Below are positions 58,302 to 62,790 of a stretch of DNA of 64,000 bases, piece by piece. The notes below the pieces were generated by a model. That model was not told the DNA's origin. It saw only the letters and a program-made list of their open reading frames with translations, and searched no databases. How positions within the stretch are numbered: the first letter of the stretch is position 1; each line of letters opens with the position of its first letter. Location of the stretch: the NCBI RefSeq assembly GCF_055900595.2, contig NZ_CM148325.1. One strand, given 5' to 3'. A program made the position numbers and the translations under genes.

Positions 58302-60281
58302 ATGGGCAGACCGTTAAAAACTTTATTCAAACGTGAGCATAGTGAAGAAATCAGTAACCCGAGCGATAACCGCGCGTTTTCGCAGGTGGCGGAAGTCTAT
58401 TTGTCACGCCGCCGTCTGTTACAGGCAGGCACGGTCGCCGGTGCCGCGGCAGCGTTCCCATTTCTGCTGAAACAGGAAAACGCGCTGGCGAAAGTGGTCT
58501 CCAAAGCAAGCGGTAACCTCGGCAAAGCGACGACGCTCGGTTTCACCAGCCTGCCGGTTTCCACGGAAGATACCGTTATCGTGCCGGAAGGATACATCGC
58601 GAAGCCCTTCTACAAATGGGGCGACGCCACCGGGATTGCCGGAAATCTGCCGGTTTTTAAAACCGACGGTAGCAACACCACGGAAGAACAGGCGGCGCAG
58701 GCCGGGATGCACCACGACGGCATGGCGTGGTTTAGCCTGCCGCAGGGCGGGAACAGCTCCGATCACGGCCTGCTTGCCATAAACCATGAATACATCGATA
58801 ACGGTCTACTGTTTAAAGATGGCGATGCCAACTGGAGCGCCGATAAAGCTCTTAAAGGCCAGAACGCGATGGGCGTGTCGGTCATTGAAGTAAAAAAAGT
58901 GCCCCTGGGCTGGGAAGTGGTGCGCCCGTCATCGTTCGCACGCCGCATCACCGTTAACACGCCGATGAAAATCACCGGTCCGGCGCTGCATAACCCACTG
59001 ATGCAAACAGTTGACGATCCGAAAGGCGAAATCATTCTCGGCACCATGCAGAACTGTGCCAACGGATTTACGCCGTGGGGCACCTATCTGACGTGTGAAG
59101 AGAACTGGTCCGATATTTTCGTAAAAAAAGCAGAGATGAACCCGCTGGAAAAACGTTACGGTATCAGCGGGAGCGACGACTCTTACCGCTGGAACGAAGT
59201 GGATAAAAGGTTCAGCGTCGACGCCACGCCGAACGAGCCGAACCGCTTCGGCTGGGTGGTGGAAATCGATCCATACGATCCGCATTCAGTGCCGCGCAAG
59301 CACACCGCGCTTGGTCGCATCAAACACGAAGGCGCAGCGGTGACAATTGCCCCGGATAACCGCGTTGTGGTCTATATGGGCGATGACCAGAAATTCGAAT
59401 ACATATATAAATTTGTCTCGGAAGGAAAATTCAACCCGCAGGATCGCAAAGCCAACATGCACCTGCTGGAAAAAGGCACTCTGTACGTGGCGAAATTTAA
59501 CGACGACGGCAAAGGCGAGTGGCTACCGCTGGTGTTCGGACAAAATGGGCTCGACGCCAGTAAAGGGTTTGAAAACCAGGGCGACCTGTTGATTAAAACC
59601 CGTCTGGCGGCAGACGCCGTGGGGGCCACTAAAATGGACCGCCCGGAGTGGATTGCGGTCGATCCATATCACGCCGGCAGCGTTTACTGCACGCTCACCA
59701 ACAACAGCGATCGCGGTAAGGAAGGAAAAGCGCCAGTGGATGCGGCCAACCCGCGCGCCAAAAACGTTTACGGCCACATCATTCACTGGTTGGAGCATAA
59801 CGGTGACCCGACCGCGCTGCAGTTTGCCTGGGATATTCTTGTGATGGGCGGTCGCACCGATACAGACAAACTGGAAACCAAAGGCAGCATGAAGGGTGCG
59901 GAATTCGGCAGCGCCGATGGCCTGAGCTTTGATCACCGCGGCGTGCTATGGATCCAGACCGACGTGTCGTCATCAACCATAAATATTAAAGATTACAAAG
60001 GCATGGGCAACAACCAGATGGTGGCGACGATTCCCGGTACCAATGAGTTCCGCCGCTTCCTGACCGGCCCGCGCGGCTGCGAAATCACCGGCATCGCGTT
60101 CACTCCGGATAACCGGACGCTGTTTATTAACATCCAGCACCCTGGCGAGCCAAGCGAAGGGCTTAGCGATCCGCAGCATCCGACGGCAGTATCAAGCTGG
60201 CCTGACGGCGATAAGGCTGGTCGTCCGCGCTCCTCAACTGTCGTTATCGTAAAAGCCGACGGCGGCATAATCGGCACCTGA
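58302..60281 (+). CDS. phoX: PhoX-family (DUF839) Tat-secreted phosphatase
   Basis: 659-aa ORF with twin-arginine signal SRRRLLQAGTVAGAAAAFPFLL and overall beta-propeller-phosphatase-like sequence; family call from memory. Confidence 0.6.
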   Translation: MGRPLKTLFKREHSEEISNPSDNRAFSQVAEVYLSRRRLLQAGTVAGAAAAFPFLLKQENALAKVVSKASGNLGKATTLGFTSLPVSTEDTVIVPEGYIAKPFYKWGDATGIAGNLPVFKTDGSNTTEEQAAQAGMHHDGMAWFSLPQGGNSSDHGLLAINHEYIDNGLLFKDGDANWSADKALKGQNAMGVSVIEVKKVPLGWEVVRPSSFARRITVNTPMKITGPALHNPLMQTVDDPKGEIILGTMQNCANGFTPWGTYLTCEENWSDIFVKKAEMNPLEKRYGISGSDDSYRWNEVDKRFSVDATPNEPNRFGWVVEIDPYDPHSVPRKHTALGRIKHEGAAVTIAPDNRVVVYMGDDQKFEYIYKFVSEGKFNPQDRKANMHLLEKGTLYVAKFNDDGKGEWLPLVFGQNGLDASKGFENQGDLLIKTRLAADAVGATKMDRPEWIAVDPYHAGSVYCTLTNNSDRGKEGKAPVDAANPRAKNVYGHIIHWLEHNGDPTALQFAWDILVMGGRTDTDKLETKGSMKGAEFGSADGLSFDHRGVLWIQTDVSSSTINIKDYKGMGNNQMVATIPGTNEFRRFLTGPRGCEITGIAFTPDNRTLFINIQHPGEPSEGLSDPQHPTAVSSWPDGDKAGRPRSSTVVIVKADGGIIGT

Positions 60282-60329
60282 TTCTGTTTCATCCGTCATT
60301 AAAAACGCAGGCGCGGTTAGCCTGTGTTT

Positions 60330-60935
60330 TTATGGTAAAGTCCTGTCAGTCCGCGCGCTGGCTTCCTTCAACGCTTTGTCGTAATTTTTGTCAGTCTGCT
60401 CGTAGTCTGGAATGCCCGGAATTCCTCAACGCTATGCCACTGTTCAGGCGCGGTGTGATGAGAGTGGCGTCGCTGGGTTATGCCTTTCCGGGCACGATTC
60501 TGGCGATTGGTTTTCTGACTCCCTAAATGACCGCTGGCTGGCGGAACTACTGGATTACAGGGGGTTACCTTTAATGTCTGTCGGTGTCCTGTTGGTGATT
60601 TGCTGTACGATGCGATTTCAGGCAATAGCCATCGGCGCACTTGATGTCCGGCTGGGACGTATACCAGAGTCACTGGAACAAGCCTCACGTCTGCTGGGAG
60701 AAAATGGTACAGGAACTTTTGTTCGGGTTCACTTTCCTGTGTTGCTCTGGTGAGCAGTGCCCTGCTGGTTTTCACTGATGCGATGAAAGAACTGCCAGTA
60801 ACACTTCTTTATGCTGAAGCAGCCCGTGGAACTTTTGAAGAAGGGGCCATCTCTGCTTTAATGATTGTTCTTGCAGGGACATTTCCGGTTATTTTGTTTG
60901 TTCCAGCTGAAAGACTGAAATCAGAGGATTGATTA
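60330..60935 (+). pseudogene. ABC transporter permease remnant (FbpB/ThiP-type), frameshifted
   Basis: Pieces in three frames, including ...FTDAMKELPVTLLYAEAARGTFEEGAISALMIVLAG..., typical of this permease family. Confidence 0.4.
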
Positions 60936-60959
60936 TGTCTGAAGAAACAGCTTTATGTA

Positions 60960-61590
60960 TTAATGATGTCCATGTTGTTTATCCCAATAGCCCATATCCT
61001 GTATTGCGGGGCGGGGGGTATGTCAGTCTGTAAAGGTGAACTGGCATGTCTGCTTGGTACATCAGGTTGTGGAAAAACAACAGTACTACGTGCTGTAGCT
61101 GGTTTTGAGCGCCTGAACAAGGGGAAATTTTTGTATCACAGCATTGTGTGGCCAGCGCAGATATGCATTTTCCGCCGGAGAAATGTCATGTCGGTATAGT
61201 CTTTCAGGAATATGCGCTCTTTCCCCACCTTACAGTTTCACAAAACGTGGCTTTGGTCTGAGAAGACTGCCGAGAGATGTACAGCGAACCAGAGTTACAG
61301 AACTGTTGAAAATGGTGGATTTATTCCACTATTCAGACAGCTATCCTCATGAACTTTCAGGAGGTCAGCAGCAACGTATTGCCCTTGCAAGGTCACTGGT
61401 TCCAAATCCAGATATCCTGTTGCTAGATGAACCATTTTCCAGCTTGGATAAAAAACAAGGGTAGGACTGAGCCGTGAAGTTCGTGATATTTTGCATGAGG
61501 CAGGGCAGACAGCACTTTTAGTCACTTACAGTGAACACGAAGCATATTTGATGGGGGCTCGTATTAGATATGTTAAAAACGGACAATATT
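60960..61590 (+). pseudogene. ABC transporter ATP-binding protein remnant, frameshifted
   Basis: Walker A GTSGCGKTT, Q-loop region ...[14 protein letters not shown]..., signature [15 protein letters not shown] and Walker [12 protein letters not shown] distributed over at least three frames. Confidence 0.5.
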
Positions 61591-62080
61591 GGGAAGGGTA
61601 ACCTTGCCAGCAGACTGTCAAGATGTATTAAACAGGTCGATTAGCTGTAGGCGGGATAGCTCGCGGGATAAATCATCTGAGAATGTGCCATTTTCCGGGC
61701 TGTTATGGGGGACAGGCATTGCTGGTTGTTGGTTCGTTGATGGAGGGAAAGCTGCAGCACAGATAATGGGGCTTTAGGAAAAGGAAAGACATAATAACCA
61801 CGACAAAGTGACTATCAAAGTGGGCCAAGGACATTTGAATGTTTGAGATAATAAATATTGTAATGAAGCTGAGGCTATTGCTACCACCACACACTACAGA
61901 ACCTGCACCATTGGATGCCAAGAACAACTGTCCTAATACATAGAAATGCTCAGATAAAAGTGTTTATGTCTCATCCGGCATGAAAACGATGAGCACATTA
62001 TCTACAATCCACAGGCCCTCCTATTTTCCCGCTTATACATTCCCCATCTTCCATTTTTCCTCACCCGCGCCGGCACCACA

Positions 62081-62125
62081 CTGTCATCTTTCTGAGGTTT
62101 TACTGTCTTACACATGTAATAAAAA
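62081..62125. promoter_or_regulatory. ugpB promoter with Pho boxes
   Basis: CTGTCATCTTTCTGAGGTTTTACTGTCTTACACATGTAAT contains tandem CTGTCA-type PhoB half-sites, matching the remembered E. coli ugpB promoter architecture. Confidence 0.45.
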
Positions 62126-62219
62126 GTTATTTTTCTGCAATTCGGGCATGATATGTAATCCCGCGAGCATAAAACGAGTGAATTTGCACATCAGGTACAA
62201 CAAGCAAGAGAGATAAACG

Positions 62220-62790
62220 ATGAAACCGTTACATTATACAGCTTCATCACTGGTGCTCGGACTGGCGTTAATGGGCAATGCACAGGCAGTGACGACCATT
62301 CCGTTTTGGAACTCTATGGAAGGGGAAATGGGCAAAGAGGTGGATACAACTGGAAAACTTTAGCGCCAGGAACGGTCTGCCGTTTGCCAGCAAAAACAAC
62401 GGTTTTGACGCCACGGACGCGGTGCTGGAGTTCAACAAGCCGGAGCAGGTGAAACACATCGTCATGCTCGAGGAGATGAACAAGAAGGGCGACTTCATCT
62501 ACGTCGGGCGTAAGGATGAATCCACCGAGAAGTTCTATAGAGGTGATTGCGCGATGACCACCGCCTCTTCCGGTTCTCTTGCCAACATTCGCGAGTACGC
62601 CAAATTCAACTACGGCGTAGGCATGATGCCTTACGACGCTGACGCGAAAGATGCACCACAAAACGCCATTATCGGCGGAGCCAGCCTGTGGGTGATGCAG
62701 GGCAAAGATAAAGAAACGTATACCGGCGCAGGCGAAAAGCTGGCGGTAGGGGAATCATCGGATCTTTCTGCTCATCCGGCGTTATCTCCA
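62220..62790 (+). pseudogene. ugpB: ugpB (sn-glycerol-3-phosphate-binding protein) remnant with internal deletion and 3' truncation
   Basis: N-terminus [30 protein letters not shown]...GKEVD joins directly to ...[29 protein letters not shown]...GKDKETYTG and then diverges; about 170 internal codons missing. Confidence 0.7.

Follow-up and report, generated by a model that had tools for sequence, protein, structure and literature searches.

An intact phoX gene in what is very probably island debris in Escherichia coli

Background

PhoX enzymes are phosphomonoesterases that are exported by the twin-arginine translocation (Tat) route and carry a cofactor made up of two Fe3+ and three Ca2+ ions; one ligand of the iron is a thiolate, and the activity of these enzymes has been argued to be limited by iron availability (PMC4223295). 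The family (PF05787) is represented structurally by the enzyme of Pseudomonas fluorescens (PDB entries 3zwu, 4a9v, 4alf and 4amf). Here we analyze a phoX gene of Escherichia coli, a species whose classical phosphatase is PhoA, together with the remnants of an ATP-binding cassette (ABC) transporter and of ugpB that follow it. They lie in a 64,000-nt window of contig NZ_CM148325.1 (assembly GCF_055900595.2), which is the whole stretch of DNA that was analyzed and to which all coordinates refer. An earlier reading of this DNA, here called the original prediction, took the three for a single phosphate-scavenging cluster in decay, which loses transport capacity while retaining the secreted enzyme. 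We conclude that this part of the window is very probably island debris around one live cargo gene, phoX, and not such a cluster.

Two further systems and one class of genomic island serve as points of reference. The E. coli ugpBAECQ operon, for uptake of sn-glycerol-3-phosphate and glycerophosphodiesters, has a promoter with Pho boxes spaced by 11 bp. Enterobacterial importers of the Fbp type are encoded by three genes, specifying a binding protein of 345–346 amino acids (aa), a permease of 562 aa with two fused domains, and an ATPase of 227–231 aa, as in E. coli O19:H7 730V1 (WP_032669183/185/186) and in Buttiauxella ('FbpC 2'). The islands of extraintestinal pathogenic (ExPEC) and avian pathogenic E. 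coli that carry aerobactin, sit and iha genes are patchworks of fragments of the insertion sequences (IS) IS3, IS66, IS21, IS110, IS256 and IS10 and of pseudogenes, with few intact cargo genes. The stretch studied here shares this composition and is a typical segment of such mosaic, IS-rich pathogenicity islands, with nothing unusual about it. A literature search on PhoX in E. coli islands returned nothing relevant, and no discussion of phoX as island cargo.

Results

An intact phoX, apparently under purifying selection

The phoX gene and the elements that delimit it are as follows; L002 denotes a locus on IncF plasmids and L016 a Cronobacter-like chromosomal contig.

58215 to 58232, plus strand: predicted Pho box of phoX, TTGTTAT-ATTT-CCGTAAC, ~70 bp 5' of the start codon, located by a consensus scan
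58302 to 60281, plus strand: phoX, an intact open reading frame (ORF) of 659 aa for a PhoX-family alkaline phosphatase with a Tat signal
60308 to 60324, no strand assigned: intrinsic terminator of phoX, a GC-rich hairpin with an A-run on one side and a T-run on the other, recognized by a terminator scan and from the sequence and kept in L002 and L016
60381 to 60382, no strand assigned: breakpoint from the phoX 3' flank to the interior of a permease gene (~codon 361), 100 bp past the phoX stop codon

The product of phoX covers the full-length PhoX domain, matching PF05787 over profile positions 2–515 of 515 (E = 1e-165), and its residues 70–658 align with residues 2–585 of P. fluorescens PhoX (3zwu; E = 2e-167), about half of them being identical by eye. 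The QNCANG.TPWGTYLTCEEN segment (NCANG...TCEEN), including both cysteines, is identical to that of the P. fluorescens enzyme in this alignment. The N-terminus shows an SRRRLLQAG motif, a hydrophobic stretch and ALA-K, and the twin-arginine model TIGR01409 recognizes residues 34–52 as a Tat export signal with 17.8 bits against a cut-off of 16.7; the Pfam TAT_signal match stays under its gathering score. The product differs from P. fluorescens PhoX in having a long N-terminal region of 34 residues before the RR motif, and its gene in traveling on a mobile island or plasmid. The intact gene for a PhoX-type phosphatase with a Tat signal, described in the original prediction, is confirmed.

The coding sequence differs from the plasmid allele at 124 nt, with no indels, and the ratio of nonsynonymous to synonymous substitution rates (dN/dS) between the two is 0.13; against the second island allele, that of the BEN2908 type, it is 0.09. 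Because of these ratios and the lack of indels, phoX appears to be maintained as an intact gene by purifying selection.

In the Cronobacter-like, Franconibacter, Klebsiella and plasmid loci, the sole conserved block in an otherwise diverged region upstream of phoX reads TTGTTAT-AWWN-YGTAAC; the predicted box is thereby kept in four genera. PhoB would be expected to bind at the predicted Pho box. The consensus of a Pho box repeat is CTGTCAT, with the core TGTCA, and one position of this core is changed from T to C in the window (58226, in the second repeat). The window and the lineage of locus L007 accordingly read CCGTAAC; NTGTAAC stands in the BEN2908-type islands and in the plasmid, Cronobacter-like, Franconibacter and Klebsiella loci, with T in six of the six other loci compared. 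This substitution is a new detail, and it also sets the window lineage apart from P. fluorescens PhoX, with which the gene otherwise shares a predicted upstream Pho box.

Of all sites in the window, the one closest to the Pho-box consensus lies elsewhere, at 12114–12131 on the minus strand (TTGTTATATAACTGTGAT, 3 mismatches). Collinearity with strain SFE8 would place it within an ISL3 transposase pseudogene, and it is probably a chance match.

phoX and the transporter remnant meet at a sharp breakpoint

Homology of the window with the plasmid locus L002 extends over 58218–60381 (93.6% identity) and that with L016 over 58202–60377 (91.8%). Past the phoX stop codon, the homology between L002 and L016 goes on for 255 bp and reaches the first part of a metN-like gene. 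The window reads ...GCTTTGTCG|TAATTTTTGTC across the breakpoint; beyond this point, L002 and L016 continue jointly with ...GGTTTAGAATCATC. Plasmid phoX homology thus stops at 60381–60382, and homology to permease DNA begins at 60385. Since the window leaves the flank shared by L002 and L016 at 60381|60382, the adjacency of phoX and the permease is a secondary fusion in the island lineage. Both island types, that of the window and that of BEN2908, carry the fusion, which therefore predates their split. phoX is a self-contained unit of ~2.2 kb (~58200–60381) with its own Pho-box-like site and terminator.

Comparison of gene neighborhoods gives the same picture. Four contexts of the intact transporter were compared (Buttiauxella, Enterobacteriaceae isolate H16N7, a metagenome contig, and E. 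coli O19:H7/Klebsiella), and none has phoX at a distance of up to 9 kb (up to 7 kb for the locus L005); no Fbp-type transporter stands beside phoX in any of the five phoX contexts compared. Synteny of phoX with this transporter and ugpB is conserved in none of these contexts. In the other loci, phoX has as its neighbor a phytase-like esterase, a glucoamylase, a ZnuA-type transporter, or a MetNIQ-type transporter. The distance to the nearest relative also differs from piece to piece, being 92–94% nucleotide identity for phoX, 68% for the transporter, and 94% for ugpB, in the last case to the E. coli gene.

These results bear directly on whether phoX, the transporter and ugpB once made up one phosphate-scavenging cluster that is now losing transport and keeping the enzyme, as the original prediction had it. 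The three pieces do lie within 4.5 kb on the same strand, but continuous ancestral DNA and co-transcription are contradicted by the abrupt break at 60381|60382 (two other phoX loci run on there into the metN-like gene), by the terminator that phoX has of its own, and by a spacer with weak IS66-like similarity before the ugp promoter. Likewise, phoX and ugpB are both gene types of the Pho regulon with Pho-box-like sites, and the ATPase fragments score best, far under the cut-off, against PhnT2, a model for putative 2-aminoethylphosphonate ATPases; against this stand the absence of synteny in the four transporter and five phoX contexts, the unequal distances to nearest relatives, and a native ugp operon that is intact in nearly all genomes. 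A common origin of the three as one cluster is in our judgment largely refuted and highly unlikely.

In the plasmid locus (L002 10343–11686, IncF plasmids of E. coli and E. albertii), phoX is convergent with a gene annotated 'esterase-like activity of phytase' and lies near copies of EAST1 (astA). The plasmid phoX and the phytase-like esterase are a possible phosphate-scavenging pair.

The transporter remnant is the broken 3' part of an Fbp-type importer operon

Two genes remain of the transporter:

~60375/60382 to 60932, plus strand: remnant of an Fbp-type ('iron ABC transporter') permease gene, codons ~359–554 of 562, delimited by tblastn and frameshift-aware alignment
60935 to 61601, plus strand: ABC ATPase pseudogene of full length (~221 of 227–231 codons), with PF00005 matches on the ORF pieces and four frameshifts

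Lesions were mapped by frameshift-aware alignment to three intact homologues (the permeases of the loci L005, L008 and L010), with which the permease remnant shares 82–84% aa identity. Its reading frame changes three times, near 60426, 60524 and 60748, and 13 codons (39 bp) are deleted in frame near 60800. The first ~358 permease codons and the entire gene for the substrate-binding protein are absent. The ATPase remnant, at 73–74% aa identity to its intact homologues, is colinear with them over codons 1–221 and has no in-frame stops; its frameshifts lie at 61019, ~61118, 61250 and ~61455, and those at 61019, ~61118 and ~61455 are in or next to runs of at least four G, A or T. The Walker A, signature and Walker B motifs are recognizable, but they are split over frames 1 and 2, and the H-loop His is replaced by Tyr. 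The reconstructed permease and ATPase frames contain no stop in 389 codons. The alignment confirms the permease and ATPase to be broken over several frames, as had been predicted from the sequence; the loss of the N-terminal permease codons and of the binding-protein gene had been overlooked there.

Compared with the enterobacterial Fbp-type importers, the remnants are colinear, and the two genes stand in the same order with the same short interval from permease stop to ATPase start; they differ by the missing binding-protein gene and permease codons, by seven frame changes in total, by the 13-codon deletion, and by the H-loop substitution. No complete importer set of binding protein, two-domain permease and ATPase is left, and both of the remaining genes are frameshifted. 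Programmed frameshifting in the ATPase was considered and rejected, as the four shifts go in both directions, the H-loop is substituted, and the shifts are conserved in no homologue.

The values of dN between the remnants and the intact homologues are 0.12–0.19, compared with 0.03–0.06 among the intact homologues at similar synonymous saturation, a three- to fourfold excess that fits relaxed constraint. We used this excess alone, since the synonymous sites are saturated (dS from 1.7 to infinity), which makes the dN/dS ratio of the remnants uninterpretable.

Could the frameshifts and deletions be sequencing or assembly artefacts in genes that are truly intact? Three of the four ATPase frameshifts are in or next to runs of at least four identical bases, which are typical sites of indel errors in long reads. 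Against this, the same 5 kb (58000–63000) recur at 99.9–100% identity in 54 complete genomes of E. coli (poultry, pig and human isolates), which are independent assemblies from different laboratories, hosts and countries, and the large lesions (the 358 missing permease codons and binding-protein gene, the 39-bp deletion, and the 461-bp deletion and 3' truncation of ugpB described below) are not of the kind that base-calling errors produce. The same pseudogenes have moreover been called by the Prokaryotic Genome Annotation Pipeline (PGAP) on identical sequence. An assembly error, which had been named as the finding that would undo the original prediction, has in our view practically no chance of being the explanation and is refuted.

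A search among 5.8 billion proteins found no intact relative of the ATPase above 75% aa identity; the best has 74%. The intact relative that gives the 68% nucleotide identity is a three-gene operon of E. coli O19:H7 730V1 and of Klebsiella plasmids, encoding a binding protein of 345 aa, a permease of 562 aa and an ATPase of 227 aa. By homology, the transporter would be of the Fbp or 'iron(III)' type, following the naming of its family, and nothing ties it to phosphate.

Given the Fe3+-containing cofactor of PhoX, and the case that iron limits the enzyme (PMC4223295), we also weighed whether a Fe3+-dependent PhoX was once co-selected, within an iron-acquisition island, with an adjacent importer of the iron(III) type that has since decayed. 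The island does carry aerobactin, sitABCD and iha, and the sources of the intact relatives name them iron(III) or FbpC-type transporters; this 'iron' is a name given by homology, and none of the phoX loci examined has such a neighbor. The junction, furthermore, cuts the permease gene in its middle and is not accompanied by a binding-protein gene, so that in this arrangement phoX and the transporter never stood together as functional units. We therefore hold such an iron link to be extremely unlikely.

The ugpB piece is a truncated second copy of foreign origin

The spacer, the ugp promoter and the ugpB fragments comprise the following features:

61675 to 61795, no strand assigned: weak and uncertain similarity to IS66-family tnpC (121 nt at 72% identity, E ~6e-6), within the spacer that separates the ATPase remnant from the ugp promoter
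62081 to 62124, plus strand: retained ugp Pho-box array, CTGTCATCTTT CTGAGGTTTTA CTGTCTTACAC ATGTAATAAAA, located by alignment to the region upstream of E. coli ugpB and by a consensus scan
62220 to 62345, plus strand: ugpB 5' fragment, codons 1–42 including the signal peptide (NF008211 positions 4–45, E = 1e-11)
62341 to 62345, plus strand: TGGAT microhomology at the deletion junction, present in intact ugpB at both deletion ends (L003 1822–1826 and 2283–2287)
62346 to 62728, plus strand: ugpB middle fragment, codons 196–324, out of frame with the 5' part (NF008211 positions 225–335, E = 7.6e-63)
62756 to 63273, minus strand: IS66-family tnpA pseudogene as annotated by PGAP, with 89% DNA matches to IS66 tnpA/tnpB from 62756, abutting the truncated 3' end of ugpB

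The ugpB piece begins ~620 bp past the ATPase remnant, beyond the spacer with the weak IS66-like match; a Pfam search on the ORFs of this spacer (61602–61980) gave no match. Two segments of the window align with E. coli ugpB (L003): 61963–62345, comprising the promoter and codons 1–42, and 62341–62736, from codon 196 onward. The predicted Pho-box array retains repeats spaced by 11 bp and deviates from the consensus at about as many positions as the native E. coli boxes do; it agrees with the earlier observation that the Pho-box promoter of ugpB is still present. Across the shared parts, namely the promoter, ribosome-binding site, signal peptide and codons 196–324, nucleotide identity to the E. 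coli operon is 83–94%.

The 5' fragment, with 8 differences in 126 nt from E. coli ugpB, continues as an ORF of 47 aa that ends at 62363. What follows in the intact gene has been removed by an internal, frame-shifting deletion of 461 bp, or 153 codons and 2 nt (codons 43–195), and the TGGAT found at both ends of the missing segment points to a microhomology-mediated deletion. The middle fragment has ~94% nucleotide identity to E. coli ugpB and a Trp-to-Arg change; homology stops at 62728, in codon 324 of 438, so that ~115 codons are lacking at the 3' end, and ugpAECQ is absent behind the fragment. In place of a full-length UgpB (~438 aa) there are only positions 4–45 and 225–335 of the 439 in NF008211. 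An internal deletion and a missing 3' end had both been anticipated; the deletion had been put at ~170 codons, and the actual figure is ~154. All four features of the original prediction lie where it placed them, with family matches well past chance level.

The island copy is a foreign and diverged second copy of ugpB; the native operon lies elsewhere in the chromosome. Of 5426 complete E. coli genomes, 5422 have native ugpB (at least 80% coverage and at least 95% identity), and no more than four of the 54 island carriers could be without it, so Ugp capacity is reduced little, if at all. One half of the earlier claim, namely that the locus is losing transport capacity, is therefore not supported, and its other half, the retention of the enzyme, agrees with the dN/dS of 0.09–0.13 for phoX. 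The variant of the ugp Pho-box region in the window, TTTCTGAGGTTTTACTGTCTT, has no exact match in 100,044 species genomes.

The retention of the ugpB Pho boxes, ribosome-binding site, start codon and signal peptide, along with an annotated 47-aa ORF, could be taken to mean that the remnants have a residual role, in which the orphan ugp Pho-box promoter titrates PhoB or drives the 47-aa signal-peptide ORF under phosphate starvation. Downstream, on the other hand, the coding differences from E. coli amount to 6 nonsynonymous and 12 synonymous codons (the last three junction codons excluded), with loss of a Trp present in E. coli UgpB, which indicates relaxed constraint, and the BEN2908-type islands lack the ugpB part altogether. 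A residual role is scarcely credible on this evidence.

The island setting and continuing decay

The window is chromosomal island DNA of E. coli. In strain SFE8, the same DNA lies inside a large mosaic island with iucABCD-iutA, sitABCD, sodC, an amiC paralogue and iha, its cargo interleaved with dozens of fragments of IS3, IS66, IS21, IS110, IS256, IS630 and ISL3 and with pseudogenes. On identical sequence, PGAP has annotated an intact 'PhoX family protein' (WP_000533456.1), an 'iron ABC transporter permease' pseudogene that is frameshifted and missing its N-terminus, a frameshifted 'ABC transporter ATP-binding protein', a 47-aa hypothetical protein (WP_001470085.1), a partial 'extracellular solute-binding protein', and an IS66 tnpA pseudogene. 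Both phoX and the pseudogenes are thus already annotated in RefSeq, and the phenomenon is an ordinary one. Full-length phoX is found in 98 of the 5426 genomes (~2%).

The neighbors of phoX are dead, and their decay continues through lesions that are specific to single lineages. In the L007 type (AR13438), a 53-bp tandem duplication of window 60428–60480 is seen at L007 ~3147–3251, and in NRZ14408 (L004 38919–40235) an IS1414 has inserted at window 61925–61932 with an 8-bp duplication. In ~34 genomes of the BEN2908 type, where the island lies beside a tRNA-Leu gene, phoX is followed by the permease remnant only to ~60812, and the ugpB part is missing.

Several further observations concern the surroundings. 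A relic of phoX that matches window 59164–59275 at 90–93% identity is annotated as a partial 'alkaline phosphatase' pseudogene and occurs also on ~100-kb plasmids; in E. coli BL21(RP) (L018 4000–4140) it adjoins an autotransporter gene. At 54253–55581 the window has a complete IS10, with an intact transposase of 402 aa, inside a gene for an SgcJ/EcaC-family oxidoreductase and with a 9-bp duplication, TGTTAAGTG; SFE8 and NRZ14408 are without it, and the insertion is therefore specific to the lineage of the window strain. On the 3' side of the IS66 remnant (63305–64000) there are small intact genes for a ProQ/FinO-family protein and a PerC-family regulator (PF06069, E = 6e-28), and in other strains a gene for single-stranded DNA-binding protein lies just past the end of the window. 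These gene types are typical of plasmid leading regions, which suggests that this part of the island is plasmid-derived.

Discussion

Taken together, the stretch is very probably a mosaic of three unrelated pieces within a large E. coli pathogenicity island full of insertion sequences, whose cargo includes aerobactin, sitABCD and iha. The first piece, the phoX unit, was very probably gained horizontally, its nearest relatives being in a Cronobacter-like chromosome and in IncF plasmids. Its coding sequence appears to be kept by purifying selection, and its product would most likely be a periplasmic phosphomonoesterase with an Fe3+/Ca2+ cofactor, made under phosphate starvation. The second piece is very probably the 3' third of an Fbp-type importer operon, from which illegitimate recombination or deletion would have removed the binding-protein gene and ~360 permease codons; the surviving part would have been fused to the phoX flank and would then have gained small frame-shifting indels, several of them at base runs, and small deletions. 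The third piece is a fragment of a foreign ugp operon, with its promoter and parts of ugpB, that bears the internal 461-bp deletion between TGGAT repeats and has its 3' end cut off where the IS66 remnant abuts. The relics are very probably non-functional, left behind by illegitimate recombination, deletion between microhomologies, slippage in base runs, and insertion sequences.

Four points weigh against this account. First, only a 112-nt relic of phoX is left in ~360 other E. coli genomes, which means that the gene has been almost wholly deleted in many lineages and is dispensable in many backgrounds. Second, the view of phoX as a live gene draws on homology for its activity: it probably still yields a Tat-exported, PhoB-induced phosphomonoesterase. 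Third, the T-to-C change in the predicted Pho box may weaken PhoB-dependent induction in the window lineage. Fourth, the true donor operon of the transporter is unsampled, its closest intact relatives having 73–84% aa identity, and the ancestral neighborhood is therefore not directly visible.

A more ambitious reading would have phoX retained in the islands of avian and extraintestinal E. coli by selection for its contribution to fitness. Its product would be an iron-dependent periplasmic phosphatase which, in the company of aerobactin, Sit and Iha, supplements PhoA in host niches that are poor in zinc and supplied with iron by siderophores, and the Pho-box change would mark a lineage with altered regulation. 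This reading is compatible with the purifying selection seen in two island types and in plasmids and with the presence of phoX in 98 of 5426 genomes; we consider it rather unlikely. What we favor is the view set out above, in which phoX is a mobile, self-contained and apparently selected gene, set among debris.

Beyond annotation, the importance of the locus is slight: the neighbors of phoX are very probably unrelated debris and not a decaying set of partners. Read in this way, the stretch shows how islands collect and erode DNA, with one intact cargo gene amid the scars of recombination, slippage and insertion sequences.

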